64,000 nt of DNA from the IMG/VR virus record IMGVR_UViG_3300020473_002200, positions 64,001 through 128,000 of that record; one strand, given 5' to 3'. The stretch comes from a virus. The notes beneath the pieces are model-generated. The model saw only the letters and a program-made list of their open reading frames with translations. It was not told the origin of the DNA and ran no database searches. The stretch's first letter is position 1. The number at the start of each line of letters is the position of its first letter. Shown here one piece after another: positions 51,058 through 64,000 of this stretch. A program made the translations under genes and the position numbers.

Positions 51058-51744
51058 GTGAGCTACAAAGAAAAAATAAAGCAAAGACAAATTTTAAGAG
51101 AACTTCGTAAAGCGAAGGCTGAGCTGTCAATGCTTTCATCATATCTGCTAGAATGTGAAGACGCCTTAACTGAATATTCATTAGAGTGGAGCTCTGATTT
51201 AAAGTTTATACTTGAGCACTTGTCACCCAAGACAGAGCCGACCTCCAATGAAAAAGAAGAGAAACAGACCTTAGGCGGAAATTCGTTTCATCATTATAAA
51301 GATGAGAAAAAATTAGACGAAGTAGAATTAAAGCCGAATACGCCAGAGTGGGCCAAGAAAGCATTTCGAAAAATTGCGTTAAAAACACATCCTGACAAAG
51401 TTAGAGATCAGCCGAATGCAAAAGAGCTGGAAGATTTATACGCAAAAGCAAACGAAGCTGTTTTCGAAGAAAACTATGATATGCTTTTAGAAATATGTAA
51501 TCTGTTATCAATAGAAAATAATTTAGATCCAGAATTAGAGCTGAAATATAATGAGAAAAGAAGAACTTCGATTAAAGAAGAACTGCAGAAAATAACAGAG
51601 TCTTTGCCTTGGGTGTGGTGCGAATCATATGACAATCCCGCGATAAGAGAGGGTTTGTTATTATCAGTACTACCACATTATGGCATAAATAATTTAACAA
51701 AAGAAGATGTCTCTGATATCCTGGAAAAGCTTTTATCACGATAA
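51058..51744 (+). CDS. J-domain (DnaJ-like) protein
   Basis: KKAFRKIALKTHPDKV with an intact HPD motif, followed by ...ANEA; GTG start. Confidence 0.75.
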   Translation: MSYKEKIKQRQILRELRKAKAELSMLSSYLLECEDALTEYSLEWSSDLKFILEHLSPKTEPTSNEKEEKQTLGGNSFHHYKDEKKLDEVELKPNTPEWAKKAFRKIALKTHPDKVRDQPNAKELEDLYAKANEAVFEENYDMLLEICNLLSIENNLDPELELKYNEKRRTSIKEELQKITESLPWVWCESYDNPAIREGLLLSVLPHYGINNLTKEDVSDILEKLLSR

Positions 51745-51799: not shown

Positions 51800-52174
51800 A
51801 TGGCTGATCGGCTAGAGAAGATTTTTAATTTGCGCGGATCCTTTATGAAATTAATCTCAGAAAAAGTTTCAGGAGCATATCCGGAGTGGCCTGTAAATTT
51901 ACAAGACAAAAGATCTCAAAAGGCTTTAAGGGAAATTACATTTCGTAGTGTAGAAGAACTATTCGAGGCCTTATTACATCTCAAGAACTGGAAAGATCAC
52001 AGAGCGTCTAAAGATCAATTTGATCGAGAAGAATATCTTGAGGAAATGATTGACGCATTTAATTACTTTTTGGCTATTTTGGTGTTAACAGGTGTAGATG
52101 CGGATGAATTTTTTGAAGCATATAATCGAAAACATGAGATAATAGTTGATAGATTGTCAGAGATTAAGTCTTAA
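51800..52174 (+). CDS. All-alpha NTP pyrophosphatase (dimeric dUTPase / T4 gp56 dCTPase-like)
   Basis: EELFEAL..LKNWK.H and REEYLEEMIDAFNYFL (EExxE...EExxD) motifs; AGGAG SD. Confidence 0.8.
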   Translation: MADRLEKIFNLRGSFMKLISEKVSGAYPEWPVNLQDKRSQKALREITFRSVEELFEALLHLKNWKDHRASKDQFDREEYLEEMIDAFNYFLAILVLTGVDADEFFEAYNRKHEIIVDRLSEIKS

Positions 52175-52253: not shown

Positions 52254-55200
52254 ATGATTAAATCTCCTAAGCGATTTACTTCTCTACATGCGCACGATGG
52301 CTTTTCAACTTTTGACGGATTAGGCTATCCCCAGGAACATATAGATTTTGTTCTAGAAAATGGTATGGATAGCTACTGTCTTACAAATCATGGCCATATG
52401 AACTCTTTTGGACATGCTTATTTACATGCGGAAAAAATTCGTAAACGTAACCCAGGTTTTAAATTTATCCCTGGTTGCGAGATGTATGTTCATCCCGATT
52501 TGCAGGTATGGGAATTAGATCGTCAAATTAGACAAGCTGCGAAAAAAGGTGATAAGGATGCCATCGCAGTGCTAAAAGCTCAACGTGAAGCAATAGCGAC
52601 ACCATTGACTGCTGTTGTAGATGGTGATGATGAAATTGTAGATATTACCACCGAAGAAGCCGGCTTGACAGTGGAGAATGAAGAAGAAACAAAGTCTGCG
52701 AAGTTTTATGATCCTATTAAGAGACGTCATCATTTAGTAGTGCTGCCAAAAACCAGTGAAGGACTACAACGATTATTTCACCTTGTTAGTAGGGGCTATA
52801 GGGAGGGGTTTTATCGTTTCCCAAGAGTAGACTATAAAATGCTACAAGAAGCCGCAGAGGGTGGTCACCTAATGGTTTCGACAGCATGTATTGGTGGCCC
52901 AATAGCGTATGAGGTATTTAGACACGCCCAACAAGTTGAGTTTGACGACCTAAGCCATAAGCTGCTTGACGATTCTTCATTTTATGAAAAGGTAATGACC
53001 GGTGTTGGAAATGCTTATCAAGGACTAGTTGATTCTGTCGGTATCAATGATGTAATGCTTGAGCTACAATTTAATAAGCTACCCGCACAGCACCTGGTGA
53101 ATAGAGCGATAATAGAGTTTGCAAATAGCCAGGGTATTACCGATAAATTGGTCGTTACGACTGATTCACATTATGCACGACCAGAGCACTGGCGTGAGCG
53201 TGAGCTTTATAAAAAGCTTGGGTGGCTTAATTATCGTGAGTTTGATCCATCAAAATTACCTCAATCTAAAGAAGACTTAAAGTGTGAGCTTTATCCAAAA
53301 AATGCAGAGCAAGTTTGGGACACATATCTTGAGACGACTGAAGGTATGGATTTTTATAATCACGAAGCCATCCGCGATGCAATAGAAAGACCTCACGATA
53401 TTGTACATCAGGAAATTGGAGAAATCCACCCTGACAGAAGTATGAAGCTACCTTCGTATGTTGTACCTAAGGGTATGACTGACGATAAGGCTCTTTTAGA
53501 AGCATGTAAAAAGGGGCTTATAGCTAGGGGTTTGGCGGATGATCCAAAATACGTTGAAAGAATAAAGCACGAATTAAAAATTATTAAAGACAAGAATTTC
53601 TCTCGCTACTTTTTAACGATGGAAGCTATTATTGAAATTGCTAAAAAGGCAATGCTCGTAGGACCGGGTCGAGGCTCTGCAGCAGGAAGTCTTGTTGCGT
53701 ACGTTCTTAGGTTAACTGATGTTGATCCATTCGAGTATGATCTTATGTTTGGTCGGTTTTTAAATCCATCTCGCGAGGGCGCGCCAGATATCGATACCGA
53801 TGTTGGCGATCGAGATCTACTCATTAATATGATGAAAGACAAGTGGGGTGATGAAAACATCGTTCCAATTTCTAACTACAATACATTTAAGCTTAAGTCT
53901 CTTGTCAAGGATATTTCTCGTTTTTATGGGATTCCATTTAACGAGGTGAATAAGGCTTTGGCTCCTGTTGAGGATGATGTAAAGAAAGCAGTCTTTAAGC
54001 AAGGGACTGACAAAAATCTATTTGTGTTACTTTACGAAGACGCCATCGCTCATTCTAAGACGTTTAGGGAATTCATCGAAAAGTACCCAGAAGTCGCCGA
54101 CCCTATCCAGGTTTTATTTAAGCAAAATAAAGCCTTGGGTCGACATGCAGGTGGCTGTATAGTAGCAGAAGACATTGCTGAAAGAATGCCTCTTATTAAG
54201 GCTCGTGGTGAACTACAGACGCCATGGGCTGAGGGTATGAATTATAAGCATCTTGAAACGTTTGGCTGGATTAAATTTGATCTACTTGGTCTGGAAACTC
54301 TTCGTATAATTCAACGCACAATTGAATTAATTTTGCAGCGTAAGGAAGGAATTGAAAACCCAACATTTGATCAAGTATATGAGTGGTTCAATTCTAATAT
54401 GGATCCTAAAGTTTTAGATATGGATGATCAACATGTCTATGAACATGTCTATGCAAAGGGTCGTTGGGCCGGCATATTTCAGTTGGCAGGTAGAGGTGCT
54501 CAGAATTTATTTAAGAAAGCTAAGCCAAAAAGTATCGTCGATATTGCTACGCTAACTTCGATATATCGTCCAGGTCCCTTAACAGCGAAAGTAGATAAGC
54601 TCTATATAAATGCCAAGAATAATCCGGATGATATTGATTATGGTCACCCTCTTATTAAAGAGGTTTTAGAAGAGACATACGGATTGATTGTGTTCCAGGA
54701 ACAGATTATGAAGTTATGCTCTGTGGTGGCTGGTTTCCCTGAGGAGGAAACAGACACAGTGCGCCGTAATATTATGAAGCGAAAAGCTTCCGAAGCCGCA
54801 GAGTCACTTGCTAAGGCTCGAGCAATTAAAGAGCAATTTGTCGCTGGATCTGTAAAGAATGGTGTTGATAGACAATTAGCTGATGATCTTTACGAAAAGA
54901 TTTTATTCTTCGCAGGTTACGGTTTTAATAAGTCACACGCTGTTTGTTATGCGATTGATTCTTACTACTGTGCTTGGCTACTAACATATTTCGAGGAAGA
55001 GTGGTTGTGCGCCTATCTTGAGTCAATGTCAGGTAATGATAAGAAGCGAGCAAAGGCTTTTTCGGAAGTCAAGGCGCTAGGATACACTATCGTACCTATT
55101 GACATTAACTACGCTACAAAATCGTGGACTATTTTAGAAGGTAAGAAGTTTATGCCTTCATTCCTTTCTTGCAAGGGTGTTGGCGAAGCCGCGATTGATG

Positions 55201-55856
55201 AGATATTGGCCAATAGACCATATTCAGACATTGATGATCTTTTATGGAATGAAGATGGTAAATGGAAGCACTCTAAGTTTAATAAAAGAGCGATGCAAGC
55301 GCTAATCGCGATTAAGGCGTTTGGGTCTATGAAGTGCGTTGGTAAAGATTCAATATTCGAAAGTTATAAGCATATGAATGAAGTTGTAATTGCCAACAAT
55401 ACAGAGGTTAAAAAGTGGACCAAGAAAGATCCAACACGAGGACAAGATGCGTTTAAGCGTATTTTGCTTGAGACTTCTGGGGAGGGTGAGTGGTCTAGAC
55501 ATGAGCAGGTACAAAATAGCGTGGCTCACCTAGGATCTTTTAACGTATCTACGCTAATATCACCAGAAGTGATTCAAAGACTGGACGATAAAGACATTAA
55601 TGTGATTGACGACTACAATGGTGTTGATTTACATTGGTTTCTCGTAATGGATGTGAAAGAAAAGTTGACTAAAAATAAAAAGCCATATCTGCTACTAACT
55701 GTTGCAGGAACCTCGGGCCAGCAATTTAGGATTTTTTGTTGGAGTTGGGATGGAAAGACGGAAATGCCAAAGTATAGTTTGTGTGTTGGTGAGTTGAATA
55801 AAAATGATTATGGATTTCAAACTTCTATGAGAAAAATCAAGGTACTTAAAGTATAA
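52254..55856 (+). CDS. dnaE: DNA polymerase III alpha subunit (family C, DnaE)
   Basis: PHP domain (HAHDGFSTFDG, TNHG, GCEMY, TDSHY), GPGRGSAAGSLVAY, PDIDTD catalytic motif, KFDLLGL, YRPGP, YGFNKSHA. Confidence 0.96.
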   Translation: MIKSPKRFTSLHAHDGFSTFDGLGYPQEHIDFVLENGMDSYCLTNHGHMNSFGHAYLHAEKIRKRNPGFKFIPGCEMYVHPDLQVWELDRQIRQAAKKGDKDAIAVLKAQREAIATPLTAVVDGDDEIVDITTEEAGLTVENEEETKSAKFYDPIKRRHHLVVLPKTSEGLQRLFHLVSRGYREGFYRFPRVDYKMLQEAAEGGHLMVSTACIGGPIAYEVFRHAQQVEFDDLSHKLLDDSSFYEKVMTGVGNAYQGLVDSVGINDVMLELQFNKLPAQHLVNRAIIEFANSQGITDKLVVTTDSHYARPEHWRERELYKKLGWLNYREFDPSKLPQSKEDLKCELYPKNAEQVWDTYLETTEGMDFYNHEAIRDAIERPHDIVHQEIGEIHPDRSMKLPSYVVPKGMTDDKALLEACKKGLIARGLADDPKYVERIKHELKIIKDKNFSRYFLTMEAIIEIAKKAMLVGPGRGSAAGSLVAYVLRLTDVDPFEYDLMFGRFLNPSREGAPDIDTDVGDRDLLINMMKDKWGDENIVPISNYNTFKLKSLVKDISRFYGIPFNEVNKALAPVEDDVKKAVFKQGTDKNLFVLLYEDAIAHSKTFREFIEKYPEVADPIQVLFKQNKALGRHAGGCIVAEDIAERMPLIKARGELQTPWAEGMNYKHLETFGWIKFDLLGLETLRIIQRTIELILQRKEGIENPTFDQVYEWFNSNMDPKVLDMDDQHVYEHVYAKGRWAGIFQLAGRGAQNLFKKAKPKSIVDIATLTSIYRPGPLTAKVDKLYINAKNNPDDIDYGHPLIKEVLEETYGLIVFQEQIMKLCSVVAGFPEEETDTVRRNIMKRKASEAAESLAKARAIKEQFVAGSVKNGVDRQLADDLYEKILFFAGYGFNKSHAVCYAIDSYYCAWLLTYFEEEWLCAYLESMSGNDKKRAKAFSEVKALGYTIVPIDINYATKSWTILEGKKFMPSFLSCKGVGEAAIDEILANRPYSDIDDLLWNEDGKWKHSKFNKRAMQALIAIKAFGSMKCVGKDSIFESYKHMNEVVIANNTEVKKWTKKDPTRGQDAFKRILLETSGEGEWSRHEQVQNSVAHLGSFNVSTLISPEVIQRLDDKDINVIDDYNGVDLHWFLVMDVKEKLTKNKKPYLLLTVAGTSGQQFRIFCWSWDGKTEMPKYSLCVGELNKNDYGFQTSMRKIKVLKV

Positions 55857-55862
55857 TAAATT

Positions 55863-56888
55863 ATGAGAAAATTTAAGAATTTTACTGACTGCTATCTATC
55901 TCTAATTAGAGAGGTCTATGACGATTATGAGTATGAATCATCTCCTAGGGGCCAGAAGATAAGAGAAAAACTGGGGGTTTCTTTTACAATAGAGGATCCT
56001 AGACATAGATACCCTTTTGTGTGGGGCAGAAATTTTAGCCCGACATATCTTGCAGCTGAGATGATCTGGTATTTATCTGGTAACAATGCTACAGAGTGGA
56101 TATCAAATTATTCAAAGTTCTGGTCCAATATTAGTGATGATGGAAAGACCGCTAATTCCGCTTATGGCGCTAGGATATTCCACACAAACCCTATTATCGC
56201 GGGAGGAAGGCTAAATCAGTGGGAATTTGTAAAAGGTGAATTAACAAGAGACCCGGATTCGAGAAGGGCAATCATTCATTTAAGGACTCCTGATGATAGT
56301 GTCGATGCAAAGCTGGATGTACCATGTACACTAAGTCTTCAATTCTTCATAAGAGATGCGCAGCTTCATATGATTGTTAATATGAGGAGTTCTGATCTTA
56401 TTTTTGGGATTGCTTATGATATTCCGGCTTTTACTTTTTTTCAAGAGATGCTTGCTCTAGAGCTAGGAGTTGAATTAGGGACTTATACGCACTGCAGTAA
56501 TTCTCTGCACATTTATGAAAGACACTTTAAGATGTGTAGAACAATTTTAACAGATCGAGGAGAACATGAGTCAATAATGGCTTTAGTACGCAATGGGGCT
56601 ATGCCAAAACTCAAGCATACCGACTTTTTGAACGGCAAGAAAGAAGAGTGGTTACAAAAGATCTTAGCATTTGAGAAAAAATTAAGATCATCCAATACAG
56701 AAATTGAATTAGATGAATTATTGCGAAACATATATCAAGGTGAGAATAAAAACATTTGGACAGATTTTGCGAGTCTGCTAGCTTATCATCGAGCAAAGAA
56801 GCTAGGTATCAACAGACAAATTTTAGAAAAGATAGACTTTGATTATTCTGGTTACGAAGTTGATTTAAGGAGAAGAAATGAAGTATGA
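55863..56888 (+). CDS. Thymidylate synthase-fold enzyme with dCMP-type specificity (dCMP hydroxymethylase gp42-like)
   Basis: AAEMIWYLSG, SAYGAR, DSRRA, catalytic DVPC155T, RSSDLIFGIAYD186 (Asp where dUMP-specific ThyA has Asn), SLHIYERH. Confidence 0.82.
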   Translation: MRKFKNFTDCYLSLIREVYDDYEYESSPRGQKIREKLGVSFTIEDPRHRYPFVWGRNFSPTYLAAEMIWYLSGNNATEWISNYSKFWSNISDDGKTANSAYGARIFHTNPIIAGGRLNQWEFVKGELTRDPDSRRAIIHLRTPDDSVDAKLDVPCTLSLQFFIRDAQLHMIVNMRSSDLIFGIAYDIPAFTFFQEMLALELGVELGTYTHCSNSLHIYERHFKMCRTILTDRGEHESIMALVRNGAMPKLKHTDFLNGKKEEWLQKILAFEKKLRSSNTEIELDELLRNIYQGENKNIWTDFASLLAYHRAKKLGINRQILEKIDFDYSGYEVDLRRRNEV

Positions 56889-57987
56889 TTATTTAATTGT
56901 GGGTGCCGGTATGTTCGGAGCTACATTCGCTAGAGAAATGTTAGATGCCGGTAAAACTGTTTTGGTATTAGACAAAAGAGAGCATATCGGTGGAAATTGC
57001 TACTCAGAAAGAAGAGAAGGTGTTGATGTTCATGTATACGGGCCTCATATTTTTCACACAAACAATGAAAAAATCTGGAATTTTGTAAATCGATTTGCAA
57101 CGTTCAATCAATATATCAATAAGCCTAAGGTCAATTTCCGTGGAAATATTTACTCATTTCCTATAAATTTAATGACTCTACACCAGCTTTGGGGAGTGAC
57201 AACACCCGCTGAGGCAGAGGCTAAATTACAAGAAGTCAGAATTCCTTGCGAGAACCCACAAAATTTAGAGGAATGGATTTTATCACAAGTTGGTAGAGAA
57301 GTTTATGAGACCTTTATCAAGGGCTATACTATGAAGCAATGGAAGCGGCACCCAAGCGAGTTGCCCGCTTCTATCATTAAACGCTTACCAATTCGTTTAA
57401 TCTTTGAAGAAAACTATTTCTTTGATAAATTCCAGGGTATTCCAAAAAACGGATATACGAAAATGATTGGCAATATGCTTGAAGGCGCAGATGTCCGGAC
57501 AGGCGTTGATTATCTAGAAGATAGAGAAACCTGGGATAGCATGGCCAATAAGACTGTATTTACCGGTAAGATTGACGAGTTTTTTGATTATGAGCATGGC
57601 TATCTAGAGTATAGATCATTACGCTTCGAGCATGAAGTTCACGATGGCGACTTTCAAGGAAACGCAGTCGTAAATTATACTGATTATGAAGTACCTTATA
57701 CTAGGATAGTGGAGCATAAACATTTTCAACCACAAGAGGCTGCGAGTCTTGAAAAGACGATAGTGACGAAAGAGTATCCGCAGGATTGGTCACCAAGTAA
57801 GGTACCGTACTATCCTGTAAATGATAAAAAGAACAGTGAGGTTTTTAAGAAGTATTCTGTTCTTGCTAGAAATAGTGATATAATATTTGGAGGTAGATTA
57901 GCTGAATATCGTTATTACGATATGCACCAAGTAATTGGTTCAGCTTTGCAAAAGGCAAAAAAAGAATTAAGGAATAATGGAGAATAA
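56878..57987 (+). CDS. glf: UDP-galactopyranose mutase
   Basis: FAD motif IVGAGMFG, HIGGNCY, YGPHIFHT, F...FQGIP..GY, TRIVEHKHF, PYYP, GRLAEYRYYDMHQVI. Confidence 0.95.
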   Translation: MKYDYLIVGAGMFGATFAREMLDAGKTVLVLDKREHIGGNCYSERREGVDVHVYGPHIFHTNNEKIWNFVNRFATFNQYINKPKVNFRGNIYSFPINLMTLHQLWGVTTPAEAEAKLQEVRIPCENPQNLEEWILSQVGREVYETFIKGYTMKQWKRHPSELPASIIKRLPIRLIFEENYFFDKFQGIPKNGYTKMIGNMLEGADVRTGVDYLEDRETWDSMANKTVFTGKIDEFFDYEHGYLEYRSLRFEHEVHDGDFQGNAVVNYTDYEVPYTRIVEHKHFQPQEAASLEKTIVTKEYPQDWSPSKVPYYPVNDKKNSEVFKKYSVLARNSDIIFGGRLAEYRYYDMHQVIGSALQKAKKELRNNGE

Positions 57988-59032
57988 TATGAGAGTTCTT
58001 TATAGCTTTTGGGGATTTATTACGCCGCTAGAAAAAAATTCAATGGTAAATACCCCGGATGGTGAGAGAGGTAATCGAGTTGATTTTGTAAGAGAATTAC
58101 AAAGTAGAGATCACACTGTAATTCAGCTTCAGAAAATGAGAGATGAAGAGCAGTTTCCGGGTGTTGAGTACAGCCCGGTTGGTTTTCCAGATGGTGATAT
58201 TGTATATTGCGAATGGCGTTGGCCGACATGGAAAAATTCTGGTAACAATCCTCAAGAATCTGACTATACTAGGCAATGTGAGGTTTTAGATCACTATCAT
58301 GCTGCTGGAGTGCCCATTATTATTCATGACGGCGATCTTAAAATGACAGCTGAAGAAGAACAGCGTTGGCCAAACGCTGTGATTTCCGATGCATGTGTAA
58401 ATCCTCGAATGCTAACTAGGAAAAGAATTTCAATCCCATGGTGCAATTATATGCAGCGTTATTTTTCGCCTGTCGAATATTCTTACAACTATACTTACGT
58501 TGGGAATAATTACGAGAGAGAAAATCAGTTTAAGAAATATTACGTTGACCCCAGCACCCCTCTAAGAGAATCAGGTATTCAGACATATGTTTGTGGTAAT
58601 TGGCTGGCCAGATCTCCAGAAAGAGAAGATCCTGGTGCTAGAATTACGAACGCGCCTAATGTTGCATTTGGTCCACGCCTTGCTTATAAAGATATTTTTT
58701 CTGTTTTGAATTCTTCTATTACGGTAACGCATATTACGAAAGATGACTATACACCTTTTGGAAACATTACGGGAAGGTTTTTCGAAGCTATCAAGAGTGG
58801 GGTACCAGCTTTAATTCCATGGGAATATGAGCACGCTCGCCCTGTTGGTCTTAGTGACGAATCATTAATCGTTAGATCTTCTGAGGATGTTGTTAAAAAG
58901 ACGAAGTGGATATCAACTCTTTCTGCAAACGATAGACTAGGTTTGGTAAATCTGCAGGAAGAGGCATTAAGGACAGTTATTGATCCTCGCCCTGAGGCCC
59001 GCGTCGACCTTTTGGAGCAGCTTTGCGGGTAA
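57977..59032 (+). CDS. GT-B glycosyltransferase resembling T4 DNA beta-glucosyltransferase / Glyco_trans_1_2
   Basis: YVGNNYER sugar-nucleotide-loop-like segment and C-terminal ITGRFFEAIKSGVPALIP (compare T4 BGT ITLRVWE..ASDAV.LID). Confidence 0.68.
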   Translation: MENNMRVLYSFWGFITPLEKNSMVNTPDGERGNRVDFVRELQSRDHTVIQLQKMRDEEQFPGVEYSPVGFPDGDIVYCEWRWPTWKNSGNNPQESDYTRQCEVLDHYHAAGVPIIIHDGDLKMTAEEEQRWPNAVISDACVNPRMLTRKRISIPWCNYMQRYFSPVEYSYNYTYVGNNYERENQFKKYYVDPSTPLRESGIQTYVCGNWLARSPEREDPGARITNAPNVAFGPRLAYKDIFSVLNSSITVTHITKDDYTPFGNITGRFFEAIKSGVPALIPWEYEHARPVGLSDESLIVRSSEDVVKKTKWISTLSANDRLGLVNLQEEALRTVIDPRPEARVDLLEQLCG

Positions 59033-59036
59033 AGTA

Positions 59037-59564
59037 ATGATTGTAGCTTTTATTGGTCCAGATATGACAGGAAAGTCGAATATAGCTTCTCGACTATCTA
59101 AAGAAATTAACATTCCTGTTTTTAAGAACACAGGCGAATGGAAGGCAGATTTAAGTGGAGATGATTATTATATAAATCTTCTTAAATTTGGTGGTACATT
59201 CTTGATGGACTTCTTGGTACAAACAAATCCATCTGCTATTTTAGATAGATTTTACCCTTGTGAATATGCTTATTCTAATGTGTTTAACCGTAGTTCTAAT
59301 AAGGATTTAATTTTAAAGCTGGATAAAAAGTTTTCTTCTATTAGCGGTAAATTTGTTTTTTGCTATAGAAGTAGCTATGATGGAATTAAAGATGATTTAT
59401 TTCCAGAGAAAATAAATTGTGAAACTCTAAAAAAAATAGAAAGACAATATAGAATATTTTTAGAGGAAACAAAATGTGATATTTTACATTTGGAAACGTC
59501 TGATATGAATCTAGAAAATCAGATTTTTAAAATTAAGAAATTTTTAGGAGTTGATGAAACATGA
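59037..59564 (+). CDS. Deoxynucleoside monophosphate kinase (thymidylate kinase-like)
   Basis: AFIGPDMTGKS P-loop and ILDRFYPCEYAY (DR motif); ATG at 59037. Confidence 0.8.
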   Translation: MIVAFIGPDMTGKSNIASRLSKEINIPVFKNTGEWKADLSGDDYYINLLKFGGTFLMDFLVQTNPSAILDRFYPCEYAYSNVFNRSSNKDLILKLDKKFSSISGKFVFCYRSSYDGIKDDLFPEKINCETLKKIERQYRIFLEETKCDILHLETSDMNLENQIFKIKKFLGVDET

Positions 59565-60565
59565 GTAAAAAAGCGTTAGTCACCGGCGGTTGTGGCTTTA
59601 TTGGTTCAAATTTGGCTATTAAATTAGTTGAGCAAGGATGGAGCGTTGACGTTGTTGATGATCTTTCTAGTGGCGATTTAGATGCATTAAAAAATTTAGA
59701 TATCAGGACTGTCACACCTGAGCTTTTAATACAGTATGAAGAGTCTGGAATTATTGAAGATAAGACCCTTGTAATCACTGGGGATTTTGCTAGTCCATAT
59801 GTCCTTTCTAGAATCGCTGATAAAAGATACGATTATGTATTTCACTTAGCTGCACTACCAAGAGTTCAATTTTCTGTAGAGAACCCTGTTTTGACAACAG
59901 ATCAAAATGTTATGAAAACAGTTTCGCTTATGACTGCTTGCATCGAAAATGTAGACAGATTTATTTTTAGTAGTTCATCCTCTGTATACGGAGATGTTTC
60001 TGACAATTTTCCCTCAAGGGAATCTGGTAACTATGAGCCAGCCTCTCCTTACGCATTACAAAAGTTAGTGGTTGAGAATTTTTGTCAATTATTTTTTAAG
60101 CTATATAAGCTTGAGTCTGTTTGCTTGAGGTATTTTAACGTATTTGGGCCTGGTCAGCCTGGAGACAGTCCATATTCAACTGCAGTATCTGCATGGTTGG
60201 ATAAAATTGCCACTAATCAGCCACTTCGAAGTGATGGAGATGGAGAGCAAACTCGTGATATCGTGTATATCGATGATGTTGTTGATGCCAATATAAGGGC
60301 AGCTGAAAGCCCCAAGACAATGAGCGGTAATACATACAATGTAGGCACAGGTGCGACGTATAGCAATAACGAGATCTTGGGTTTACTTAAAAATAAGTTT
60401 GGTGATCTTGAAATTAACCACGCGCCTGAAAGACCTGGCGACGTTAAGCATACAAAGGCAAATATAGCAAAGATTTTTGAAGATCTTGGCTGGAAGCCTA
60501 AGTGGGATTTTGTATCTGGGTTAAATGAAACAATAAAGTGGTGGGGTCTAAAAGAGAACTCCTAA
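59561..60565 (+). CDS. NAD-dependent NDP-sugar epimerase (extended SDR, GalE/WbpP-like)
   Basis: TGGCGFIGSN, FHLAA, SSSSVYG, YALQK (YxxxK), LRYFNVFGP, RDIVYIDDVV.AN. Confidence 0.92.
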   Translation: MSKKALVTGGCGFIGSNLAIKLVEQGWSVDVVDDLSSGDLDALKNLDIRTVTPELLIQYEESGIIEDKTLVITGDFASPYVLSRIADKRYDYVFHLAALPRVQFSVENPVLTTDQNVMKTVSLMTACIENVDRFIFSSSSSVYGDVSDNFPSRESGNYEPASPYALQKLVVENFCQLFFKLYKLESVCLRYFNVFGPGQPGDSPYSTAVSAWLDKIATNQPLRSDGDGEQTRDIVYIDDVVDANIRAAESPKTMSGNTYNVGTGATYSNNEILGLLKNKFGDLEINHAPERPGDVKHTKANIAKIFEDLGWKPKWDFVSGLNETIKWWGLKENS

Positions 60566-61164
60566 TGAAAAGAAACCCACGATTTGAAATTTTTACTGGC
60601 CCAATGTTTGGTGGAAAAACGACTCGTCTAATCGCTGCTTTAGATAGATACCAATACCAAAATAAGAGTATTTTACTGTTTAAACCAAAGATTGATAATA
60701 GGTATGATAAAAATTCCGTTGTAACGCATAGCGGCTTGAGCCTATCTTCTAGGACAGTGGGGTTTAGTCGTGTGGAAAATGTGGCAAATGGAGATGAATT
60801 ATTAGAAAGATTCGAGTATCTTAATTCTGGTTGCGATATAGACGTTGTCGCTGTTGACGAGGCATTTATGATTGGGGGATCCGCTAGTGCTCTTAAAGCG
60901 ATTTATAATTTTTTTGGGAAAACAATACTTGTTTCTAGTCTGCAATTATCGTCTTCTGGCGAGTCCTATAAAGAGATATTAGATATTTTACCATGGGCAA
61001 CAAATATTCAAATTTGTCCTGCAGTATGTGCTATTTGTGGCGAAGACGCTTATTTTACACAAAAAATCGCAGGGAATAATGATCCTGGTAAATTGGAGAT
61101 TGGTGGATCTGATTTGTATCAGCCTCGTTGTCATAATCATTTTAATCCACAGGAATTATTGTGA
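60565..61164 (+). CDS. tdk: Thymidine kinase
   Basis: GPMFGGKTT, KPKIDNRY, VAVDEAF, C..CG..A..T.K...GG...YQPRC..H; ATG overlaps the upstream stop (TAATG). Confidence 0.9.
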   Translation: MKRNPRFEIFTGPMFGGKTTRLIAALDRYQYQNKSILLFKPKIDNRYDKNSVVTHSGLSLSSRTVGFSRVENVANGDELLERFEYLNSGCDIDVVAVDEAFMIGGSASALKAIYNFFGKTILVSSLQLSSSGESYKEILDILPWATNIQICPAVCAICGEDAYFTQKIAGNNDPGKLEIGGSDLYQPRCHNHFNPQELL

Positions 61165-61577
61165 ATAAAAGTGCATGGGTTTTAAAGTCTGAAAAAATTG
61201 TAAAAGACTGGGGCCATGAAGTAAGATGGGATTTTGTAACGCAGCAAATATTTGGTAAAAAGCTTTTTATAAAAGAGGGGTTCTCAACAAGGACCAAGTA
61301 TTTTACCAATAAAAGCGAAACTTTTTTTCTAGAAGAAGGAGAGTTAGAAGTAGTTTTCGCTCCAGAATCTTATTTATTGAATAGAGACGTTCAGTTAGTT
61401 ACAAGAAGGGTTTTAGTTAAAGGAGACGTATTTCAAATTCAATCAGGGTGTCCATACACTTTAAAGGCTTTAGCTGATTGTAATATTTATGAAATCAGTT
61501 CATCAGGAAATTCCACTTTTTGTGTTTTAAATGATGAATATTTTAATATGACTGAACAAAGGAATAAAAATGGTTGA
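61161..61577 (+). CDS. Cupin-fold protein (mannose-6-P isomerase-like), metal His residues apparently lost
   Basis: K.WGHE...GK.L.I..G....KYF..K.ETF...G pattern; usual QYH and H ligands replaced. Confidence 0.6.
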   Translation: MNKSAWVLKSEKIVKDWGHEVRWDFVTQQIFGKKLFIKEGFSTRTKYFTNKSETFFLEEGELEVVFAPESYLLNRDVQLVTRRVLVKGDVFQIQSGCPYTLKALADCNIYEISSSGNSTFCVLNDEYFNMTEQRNKNG

Positions 61578-62430
61578 ACCCAACCAAGTGAATTGCGTAA
61601 TCTATCACGCAGATTGTACCGATGGTTTTGGTGCAGCATACGCTGCCTGGAAACAATTGGGTAATAGAGCAGAATATCATGCATGTAGACATGGTCAAAC
61701 CCCTCCAGATGTAAAAGACAAGATTGTTGCGATACTGGATTTTTCATTTGACAATGCCACAACAAAGCAAATGATTGAAGACGCAGAGGGCTTAATTGTT
61801 ATTGATCACCACAAATCTGCAATGGTAGAGCTTCATGATATATCAAATACACATTTCGATATGACTAAATCTGGCGCTATGTTATCGTGGGAATTTTTTC
61901 ATCCTGGTAAAGAACCGCCAAAGTTTGTAAGATATATTATGGATAGAGATCTCTGGACATGGGAGCTTGATTATTCAAAGGAATTTAGCGCTGCTTTTGA
62001 TATGGTACCATTTGAATTTGAGGAATTTGAAAAGTTTGAAGATGACTCAGTATTCGATGATGCAGTTAAGCGTGGTTCATATATCCTCGCATATTCAAAG
62101 ACAGTTGTAAAAAAAGTTTGTGAGAAAGCGGTTGTCCGTTACTTTGAAGATAAAAAGATTATGATAGTAAATGCGTCACACTGGATGTCAGAAATTGGGT
62201 CTAGATTATCTCCCGATTGTGACTTTGCAGTGATCTGGTATTTTGATCATGATATGGGTATTACTAAGGTTAGCTTAAGATCTTTTCATGACAATGTAGA
62301 TGTTAGTGAGTTTGCTAAAAAATTTGGGGGTGGTGGTCATAAGAAGGCCGCCGGCTTTACTCTCCCAATAGATCAGCATATTGACAATTTATTTACTCTA
62401 GAACCAGAAAAAAAGGAAGAATCTTCATAA
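61570..62430 (+). CDS. DHH/DHHA1 phosphoesterase (NrnB/oligoribonuclease-like)
   Basis: YHADCTDG, ILDFS, IDHHKS, D.DLW.W, GGGGHKKAAGF. Confidence 0.88.
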   Translation: MVEPNQVNCVIYHADCTDGFGAAYAAWKQLGNRAEYHACRHGQTPPDVKDKIVAILDFSFDNATTKQMIEDAEGLIVIDHHKSAMVELHDISNTHFDMTKSGAMLSWEFFHPGKEPPKFVRYIMDRDLWTWELDYSKEFSAAFDMVPFEFEEFEKFEDDSVFDDAVKRGSYILAYSKTVVKKVCEKAVVRYFEDKKIMIVNASHWMSEIGSRLSPDCDFAVIWYFDHDMGITKVSLRSFHDNVDVSEFAKKFGGGGHKKAAGFTLPIDQHIDNLFTLEPEKKEESS

Positions 62431-63886: not shown

Positions 63887-64000
63887 ATGGAAAATAACCA
63901 CAGACCTTCTTGGGATAGCGTCTGGGCGAATGTAGCAACTGCGATTTCTAAAAGATCATATGATCCACGCTATCAGGTAGGCGCAATCGTCGTAACGTCT
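63887..64000 (+). CDS. dCMP deaminase, N-terminal fragment (runs off the window)
   Basis: Translates MENNHRPSWDSVWANVATAISKRSYDPRYQVGAIVVTS, matching the RPSWD...RS......VGA.IV start of dCMP deaminases; not in the supplied ORF track. Confidence 0.78.
   Translation, partial: MENNHRPSWDSVWANVATAISKRSYDPRYQVGAIVVTS

Follow-up and report, generated by a model that had tools for sequence, protein, structure and literature searches.

The thymidylate synthase-like gene

We analyzed a stretch of 64,000 nucleotides of viral DNA (positions 64,001 to 128,000 of the IMG/VR virus record IMGVR_UViG_3300020473_002200), referred to below as the window, for the function of a gene at 55863..56888 whose product resembles thymidylate synthase (TS). 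The TS-like open reading frame (ORF) lies on the plus strand, begins with ATG, is open throughout and encodes 341 amino acids. Its product is predicted to be a folate-dependent deoxycytidine monophosphate (dCMP) 5-hydroxymethylase of the long form represented by MilA. The genes around it follow each other on the same strand in the order MazG-like, DnaE, TS-like, Glf, GT-B glycosyltransferase (GT), kinase-like, epimerase and thymidine kinase. The TS-like start codon is preceded by an AT-rich leader, and no Shine-Dalgarno-like sequence was seen in the inspected interval 55840-55865; at the other end of the gene, its stop and the start of Glf share an overlap of 11 nt (interval 56870-56895).

The positions on which a functional reading depends can be placed on the DNA exactly (all on the plus strand). 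The catalytic Cys155 is encoded by TGT at 56325-56327 and is directly followed by Thr156 (ACA). In the alignment, the codons for Asp152-Val-Pro-Cys155 (56316..56327) place an aspartate three residues before the cysteine, a position held by L143 in the Escherichia coli enzyme ThyA and by D145 in the phage T4 enzyme gp42; this aspartate, which is proposed to activate water for hydroxymethylation, is invariant in the family. Ser99-Ala-Tyr101 (56157..56165) aligns with T4 Ser94-Asn-Tyr96 and supplies the Ser-x-Tyr part of the hydroxymethylase signature described in the literature. Asp178 (56394..56396) corresponds to the pterin-binding residue D169 of E. coli ThyA and is retained, so that the D169N mark is absent. 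Asp186 (GAT, 56418..56420) occupies the position that selects between cytosine and uracil, equivalent to N177 in E. coli, D179 in T4 and D186 in MilA.

Cys155-Thr156, the stretch RSSDLIFGIAYD (residues 175-186), the GAT codon at 56418-56420 and the spacing of 31 residues between Cys155 and Asp186 had been pointed out in an initial annotation made from the sequence, and a script check reproduced every one of these positions. The reference motifs that it cited, C146-H and RSCDVFLG-LPFN177 in ThyA and C148-T and RSNDVVFG-FRND179 in T4 gp42, proved correct when the fetched sequences were aligned. Since the protein matches Pfam PF00303 over residues 11-252 (2.8e-31), and since C155, T156 and D186 are invariant in the family, the motif is not a chance occurrence. 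All eight NCBIfam equivalog models for thymidylate synthase scored the protein far under their cut-offs, the best of them giving 92.3 bits where 327 would be required. The expectation that automated pipelines would label the gene thyA was thus borne out in part: JGI (for the relatives) and PHROGs use the name 'thymidylate synthase', but the NCBIfam equivalogs would not, at 92 bits versus 327.

Active-site signature compared with verified enzymes

Four products are known for the cysteine-dependent enzymes of the TS fold that act on pyrimidine monophosphates, namely methyl-dU (ThyA), hydroxymethyl (T4 gp42, SPO1 gp29, MilA), methyl-dC (Xp12, PaMx74) and hydroxyl-dC (RB69 gp48, RL38J1_216, HY126 AfhB). 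In ThyA, Leu143 and His147 form a hydrophobic surround of the catalytic cysteine that keeps water out and allows hydride transfer. We fetched the sequences of verified enzymes from their genome records and aligned them with the TS-like protein, using E. coli ThyA positions as column numbers. ThyA, which makes thymidine monophosphate (dTMP), has E58, W80, V-Y around Tyr94, L143, H147, Q165, D169, G173 and N177. The columns of T4 gp42, the 5-hydroxymethyl-dCMP (5hm-dCMP) enzyme, read E58, W80, S-N-Y, D143, T147, M165, D169, G173 and D177 (E60, W82, S94-N-Y96, D145, T149, M167, D171, G175 and D179 in its own numbering, with C148 as the nucleophile). The 5-hydroxy-dCMP enzymes RB69 gp48 and RL38J1_216 have E and F, respectively, at 58, A80, no serine two residues before the tyrosine (Thr and Met instead), E143, T147, M165, N169, V173 and D177. 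The 5-methyl-dCMP enzymes Xp12 and PaMx74 combine E58, W80, (S or A)-A-Y, N143, P147, L165, D169, G173 and D177.

With E66, W87, S99-A-Y101, D152, T156, M174, D178, G182 and D186, the TS-like protein shows the T4 gp42 pattern at every one of these positions. Further residues that can be read from the alignment are C155, R134/R135, S176, H216 and Y218, and the residues that contact the para-aminobenzoic acid (PABA) ring in T4 (Tyr56, Trp82 and Phe174) correspond to Tyr62, Trp87 and Phe181. The sequence features typical of T4 gp42 are all found: the cysteine with an aspartate at +31, the aspartate at Cys-3 together with Ser-x-Tyr, and the folate residues Asp178, Trp87, Gly182, Tyr62 and Phe181. 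The features that mark ThyA are replaced, Asn177 by Asp186 and Leu143/His147 by Asp152/Thr156. Neither the combination D169N, W80A and G173V of the 5-hydroxy-dCMP synthases (Asp178, Trp87 and Gly182 here) nor the methylase pattern of Asn143, Pro147 and Leu165 with a C-terminus of ThyA length (Asp, Thr, Met and a tail of 123 residues here) is present.

The weight of these positions is known from published work. An aspartate at 177 selects cytosine (PMC5175136, PMC13326640), and in the MetaGPA study the strongest association with cytosine-modified viral contigs was seen for the residues at 177 and 147 (PMC8670742). An aspartate or glutamate at Cys-3 together with Ser-x-Tyr has been proposed as the signature of hydroxymethylation, and the T4 gp42 variants D145N, S94N and Y96F are inactive (PMC6400193). 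The D169N exchange is diagnostic of the flavin-dependent 5-hydroxy-dCMP synthases and was validated on nine further enzymes (PMC13326640). MilA owes its preference for CMP to Lys133 and Ala176; the A176S/K133R variant prefers dCMP instead and loses activity on CMP (PMC5175136). This ribose-selecting pair is represented in the TS-like protein by Arg134 and Ser176, the deoxyribose type, rather than by Lys/Ala.

Conservation and phylogeny of the family

At E <= 1e-10, a large protein search recovered 1453 relatives, of which the best 120 comprise 322-347 amino acids, cover 74-100% of the query (at least 91% for all but one) and derive mostly from marine metagenomes; several of them are encoded on contigs of 250-290 kb. 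In an alignment of 52 family sequences with 50-87% identity, C155, T156 and D186 are invariant. We also scanned 121 family proteins for eight residues at fixed offsets from the catalytic cysteine. D(-3), T(+1), M(+19), S(+21), D(+23), G(+27) and D(+31) were found in all 121; Cys+26 varies (Phe in 84 of the 121, Leu or Tyr in the rest), and the NSAYG motif is present in 120 of them.

The initial annotation had suggested that a phylogeny with gp42 and ThyA would be informative. In a maximum-likelihood tree, the family of the TS-like protein forms one clade (support 97/96) that is nested with the hydroxymethylases in a moderately supported group of T4 gp42, SPO1 gp29, ATCCB and VPE25 (89/82), apart from the true ThyA proteins, whose clade is supported at 100/100. 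The two 5-hydroxy-dCMP synthases in the tree cluster by themselves (100/98), outside the larger group to which the family belongs. The relation of MilA to the family is drawn from matches to sequences and structures in the PDB rather than from this tree.

Fold and C-terminal domain

When all PDB sequences were searched with phmmer, two MilA constructs were the best match (1e-47), and ThyA (about 1e-19) and T4 gp42 (6.6e-17) followed at a distance. An AlphaFold2 model built from the 52-sequence family alignment (predicted local distance difference test score, pLDDT, 91.2; predicted TM-score, pTM, 0.92) is confident and likewise points to MilA. Foldseek placed MilA first, with a query TM-score (TMq) of 0.80 over 338-348 columns, and ThyA structures reached a TMq of about 0.55 over about 225 columns. 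In VIA-align, residues 3-340 of the model superimposed on residues 5-326 of the MilA chain with a Z-score of 34.9, a root-mean-square deviation of 2.4 A over 311 residues and 34% identity; the next matches were the dCMP hydroxylase of phage HY126 (Z 24.3, model residues 1-230) and then ThyA (Z about 22).

The match to MilA extends into an all-helical C-terminal domain (56550..56885, plus strand; about residues 230-341) that corresponds to MilA helices alpha9-alpha13, the model helices running from residue 219 to 336. The protein continues for 89 amino acids past the Pfam match, and for 123 residues after the equivalent of Tyr209, compared with 28 in T4 gp42 and 55 in E. coli ThyA. A C-terminal extension of roughly 100 amino acids had been noted before as a possible partner-binding add-on; the length estimate was about right, but the binding role finds no support. 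Judged from the model, the extension is the same helical domain by which MilA exceeds the TS core. The MilA study reports that the domain is remote from the active site and that truncated versions are insoluble (PMC5175136); by analogy, these findings would lend no support to a dedicated role in partner binding, nor do they argue against one.

Gene neighborhood and genome context

Several genes next to the TS-like gene encode proteins that could act before or after it. A MazG-like (PRA-PH) nucleotide pyrophosphohydrolase is encoded at 51800..52174 (plus strand; PF01503 28.3 bits, cut-off 21.3; PHROG nucleotide pyrophosphohydrolase 2.4e-13). Its Pfam and PHROG family matches suggest a candidate dCTPase, which would supply dCMP and exclude dCTP; neither a single-sequence nor a profile search gave a meaningful PDB sequence match for it. 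A 228-amino-acid protein with weak, sub-threshold DnaJ and WbqC-like matches is encoded between Fpg and the MazG-like gene (51058-51744) and recurs, with low sequence identity, in 27 of the 70 related viral contigs that we surveyed for genes within 10 kb of the TS-like gene. Directly upstream of the TS-like gene lies the gene for a DnaE-type (Pol III alpha) polymerase of 1200 amino acids (52254-55856, plus strand). Its best matches among cultured phages show only about 29% identity, and its adjacency is kept in 61 of the 70 relatives.

Downstream, the genes at 56878..57987 and 57977..59032 (both plus strand) encode a UDP-galactopyranose mutase, Glf (TIGR00031 equivalog 379 bits, cut-off 303.75; Pfam GLF 3.8e-76), and a glycosyltransferase of the GT-B fold, respectively. 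The AlphaFold2 model of the latter (pLDDT 91.6) matched in Foldseek the T4 glucosyltransferases BGT (1qkj, TMq 0.65) and AGT (1ya6, TMq 0.66), the DNA glycosyltransferase of HY126 (9iqz), and 7qsg, 7fga and 3mbo, and we regard the protein as a candidate DNA glycosyltransferase for 5-hydroxymethylcytosine (5hmC). No homologue was detected in 50,697 phage records by tblastn, no PHROG matched, and the only Pfam match was sub-threshold; BLASTP comparisons with RL38J1_215 and with the glucosyltransferase of ATCCB likewise gave no similarity. The protein is nevertheless kept at 38-95% identity in 43 of the 70 related contigs. Judged by its model, it looks like a member of an undescribed family of candidate DNA glycosyltransferases, to which no family name beyond the GT-B fold can be given.

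A P-loop protein resembling deoxynucleoside and deoxynucleotide kinases follows at 59037..59564 (plus strand; PHROG thymidylate kinase 2.7e-7). It matches YorR (2axp, 1.2e-7) and deoxyguanosine kinase (2jas, 4e-5) in PDB profile searches and is a candidate 5hm-dCMP kinase; with RL38J1_214, BLASTP detected a P-loop match only. The gene at 59561..60565 (plus strand) encodes an extended short-chain dehydrogenase/reductase (SDR) of the NDP-sugar 4-epimerase class (GalE, WbgU, WbpP type), as judged from the Pfam Epimerase match (4.9e-52), the TIGR01179 GalE match (5.2e-47, below the cut-off) and PDB sequence matches. The module is followed by genes for a small cupin-like protein (61161-61577; PHROG 'cysteine dioxygenase' 1.3e-14) and a DHH/DHHA1 phosphoesterase (61570-62430), which accompany the TS-like gene in 29 and 35 of the 70 relatives, respectively.

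Within the 10-kb surroundings of the TS-like gene in the 70 related contigs, an epimerase was present in 61, the kinase in 52, a GT in 43 and the MazG-like gene in 31. Glf is confined to the 21 closest relatives, in which the gene order is conserved as well. In more distant relatives, the TS-like gene, kinase, GT and epimerase are found in other orders and without Glf. This distribution suggests that the sugar has diversified on a common modified base across the phage lineage. A near-identity nucleotide search with the 8.3-kb block against the phage collection gave no match.

The record as a whole, from an uncultured marine T4-like giant phage, comprises 188 kb and is about 67% complete. Its major capsid protein is distantly T4-like, with Flavobacterium phage immuto as the top cultured-phage match (about 45% identity), and this match raises the possibility of a host among the Bacteroidota. 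The genes for an alternative supply of dTMP are present. A dCMP deaminase of 143 amino acids (63887..64000, plus strand, continuing beyond the window to genome position 128318) is intact, carries the HAE...PCxxC zinc motif and matches PF00383 (8.4e-21), and an intact ThyX with the RHR..S motif is encoded at C1:161538-162248 in genome coordinates. ThyX together with a single TS homologue of the Asp type is also found in four of five large related genomes. Given the intact ThyX and dCMP deaminase and the recurrence of ThyX in the relatives, the supply of dTMP appears to be independent of the TS-like gene. A gene for dihydrofolate reductase (DHFR) was not found in the record, which is about two-thirds complete.

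Predicted reaction and pathway

From the observed signatures, fold, family conservation and gene context we infer the substrate and the product of the enzyme and every step of the pathway described here. The sequence evidence makes it very probable that the TS-like gene encodes a folate-dependent, deoxyribose-type dCMP 5-hydroxymethylase that performs T4 gp42 chemistry on the long MilA-type architecture. Three elements of the initial annotation persist in this assignment. Its choice of dCMP over dUMP agrees with the invariant aspartate at the position of N177 and, as a second associated residue, with the replacement of His147 by threonine. Its preference against a methyl product is upheld by Asp, Thr and Met in columns 143, 147 and 165, as in T4 gp42, where Xp12 and PaMx74 have Asn, Pro and Leu. 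Its preference for either a hydroxymethyl or a hydroxyl product can now be narrowed to hydroxymethyl, the D169N exchange being absent and Trp87 and Gly182 retained. Because the T4 gp42 residues are shared and the hydroxylase and methylase signatures are both missing, hydroxymethyl is the most likely product.

By homology, the enzyme would be a homodimer dependent on 5,10-methylene-tetrahydrofolate. Cys155 would attack C6 of dCMP, and Asp186 would read and protonate the N3/N4 side of the cytosine and thereby exclude dUMP. The folate, held by Tyr62, Trp87 and Phe181 at the PABA ring and by Asp178 at the pterin, would transfer its methylene group; no hydride transfer would follow, and a water molecule placed by Asp152 and Ser99/Tyr101 would instead add to the exocyclic methylene. 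The predicted products are 5hm-dCMP and tetrahydrofolate (THF), and Arg134 and Ser176 would set the specificity for the deoxyribose-type rather than the CMP-type substrate.

Gene content suggests how this reaction may be embedded. The MazG-like enzyme would supply dCMP, the downstream kinase would take 5hm-dCMP towards the triphosphate, and the DnaE polymerase would incorporate the resulting precursor into DNA. There, the GT-B enzyme would glycosylate 5hmC with a sugar nucleotide provided by the epimerase and Glf, and dTMP would be made separately through dCMP deaminase and ThyX. A more specific proposal, which we offer tentatively and with the greater part of our expectation lying elsewhere, is that the enzyme opens a route to hexofuranosyl (galactofuranosyl) 5hmC, a DNA hypermodification in which the epimerase makes UDP-Gal, Glf converts it to UDP-Galf and the new GT-B family transfers the sugar to 5hmC. 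The literature that we searched contained no furanose on hydroxymethylcytosine, and the only Glf-bearing phage DNA-modification pathway found there was the 5-hydroxycytosine system of RL38J1 (PMC13326640). Were the galactofuranosyl proposal true, relatives without Glf would carry another sugar on the same base.

Alternative products of the enzyme

Several points weigh against the assignment as a dCMP hydroxymethylase. In the tree, the deep branches are long with no more than moderate support, and many terminal branches are long too, so that the deep order is unreliable; the D169N rule was derived from a limited set of tested enzymes; the record is incomplete, so that the lack of a DHFR gene or a second TS is weak evidence; the roles given to the dCTPase and the kinase rest on weak family matches; and the layout of TS-like, GT and kinase genes together with Glf resembles that of RL38J1, a 5-hydroxycytosine phage for whose TS homologue RL38J1_216 MilA is likewise the top Foldseek hit. 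This last point leads to a flavin- and O2-dependent 5-hydroxy-dCMP synthase, such as RB69 gp48, DLP3 gp80, RL38J1_216 and HY126 AfhB, after whose action the sugar would sit directly on the C5 oxygen as in RL38J1. In that phage the TS homologue (216), the GT (215) and a Tmk-like kinase (214) are adjacent and Glf lies elsewhere, and its DNA glycans begin with galactose. The TS-like protein and the hydroxylases also have an acidic residue (Asp/Glu) at 143, Thr147, Met165 and Asp177 in common, and the HY126 hydroxylase was the second-best structural match. However, each of the 121 family proteins has an aspartate at the equivalent of D169, Trp80 and Gly173, which contact the folate, are retained where Ala and Val are found in the hydroxylases, the protein is only 26% identical to RL38J1_216 as compared with 33-34% to MilA, the verified hydroxylases form a clade of their own, and the GT and the kinase lack detectable similarity to their RL38J1 counterparts. 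We therefore consider a hydroxylase unlikely.

The retained folate residues, together with Asp177, would also suit a dCMP methyltransferase (5-methyl-dCMP synthase) of the kind known from Xanthomonas phage Xp12 and Pseudomonas phage PaMx74, and N177D mutants of true TS do make 5-methyl-dCMP (PMC8670742). Such an enzyme is nonetheless highly improbable here: the verified methylases have Arg21 and 61 residues after Tyr209 in addition to Asn143, Pro147 and Leu165, as opposed to a proline in column 21 and the 123-residue helical domain of the TS-like protein; the adjoining glycosyltransferase needs a hydroxyl acceptor; and the missing DHFR, with the reservation made above, points the same way. A divergent but ordinary ThyA, to which the PF00303 match and the JGI and PHROGs labels would fit, has next to no probability in our view, given that Asn177, His147, Leu143 and Gln165 are all replaced, that every NCBIfam TS equivalog score falls far under its cut-off, that the genome and four of its five large relatives encode ThyX, and that the true ThyA proteins form their own clade. 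A CMP hydroxymethylase comparable to MilA or BcmA, which would serve a nucleoside-type product or RNA instead of DNA, draws its appeal from MilA, the closest solved relative by sequence and fold, C-terminal domain included. It is very unlikely too, because Arg134/Ser176 stand in place of Lys133/Ala176, the state of the A176S/K133R mutant that has no CMP activity (PMC5175136), and because the gene is part of a phage replication and deoxynucleotide module beside DnaE, the deoxynucleotide-kinase-like gene and the GT-B transferase.

Implications for phage DNA modification

Enzymes of this class are well known; the more novel question concerns the downstream sugar chemistry, namely the sugar that the Glf-containing subclade would put on 5hmC. 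With the assignment as a dCMP hydroxymethylase, hundreds of metagenomic 'thymidylate synthase' genes in a widespread marine lineage of T4-like giant phages would be better read as dCMP hydroxymethylases, and full replacement of cytosine in the DNA of that lineage would be implied. Cytosine modification affects the sensitivity of phage DNA to restriction and to CRISPR systems, as well as the recovery of viromes by bisulfite, enzymatic or nanopore methods. The gene also serves as a worked case of how residue rules (positions 143, 147, 169 and 177, and Ser-x-Tyr), read beside verified enzymes, can separate hydroxymethyl, hydroxyl and methyl products.

Comparison with known systems

T4 gp42 (EC 2.1.2.8; PDB 1b49, 6a9a, 6l18; PMC6400193) shares with the TS-like protein the predicted substrate, cofactor and product as well as the diagnostic residues, and T4 follows the same genomic logic of pyrophosphatase, kinase, DNA glycosyltransferase and dCMP deaminase. 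The two proteins are nevertheless distant in sequence, and gp42 has 246 amino acids and no C-terminal domain, compared with 341 amino acids in the TS-like protein; T4 also relies on the ThyA-type td and on the polymerase gp43, whereas the phage studied here has ThyX and DnaE.

MilA of the Streptomyces rimofaciens mildiomycin pathway (PDB 5jnh, 5b6d, 5b6e, 5jp9; PMC5175136) matches over its full length, including the five-helix C-terminal domain, and even the residue numbers of Cys155, Asp186, His216 and Tyr218 coincide. It differs in its Lys133/Ala176 pair, in its preference for CMP and in its place in bacterial secondary metabolism, as compared with Arg134/Ser176 in a predicted phage enzyme for DNA precursors. 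Since the MilA-type C-terminal domain is common among phage enzymes of the deoxy type, MilA may descend from such phage enzymes.

The 5-hydroxy-dCMP synthases RB69 gp48, DLP3 gp80, RL38J1_216 and HY126 AfhB (PDB 9iqc, 9iqu; PMC13326640) resemble the TS-like protein in the TS fold, the use of dCMP, Asp177, Thr147 and an acidic residue at 143, and their genes are likewise followed by those for a kinase and DNA glycosyltransferases, with Glf in RL38J1 in addition. They are set apart by D169N, W80A and G173V, by their use of flavin and O2, by their short length (238-259 amino acids) and by their separate clade.

The nearest homologues from cultured phages are those of Lactobacillus phage ATCCB (ATCCB_0045) and Enterococcus phage VPE25, which have 38-40% identity and the same residue signature. 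In ATCCB (MK504445.1 34336-37391) the same triad occurs, consisting of an Asp-type TS homologue, an annotated beta-glucosyltransferase and Glf; in VPE25 the genes for the TS-like protein, dUTPase and an annotated beta-glucosyltransferase are clustered. VPE25 DNA resists bisulfite conversion and contains a modified cytosine (PMC4999554). Both proteins are shorter (269-281 amino acids) and belong to siphophages of Gram-positive hosts, and the sequence of their glycosyltransferase shows no relationship to that of the one encoded in the window. That the unrelated siphophage ATCCB has the same triad indicates that the combination of Glf and an enzyme of the hydroxymethylase type recurs independently.

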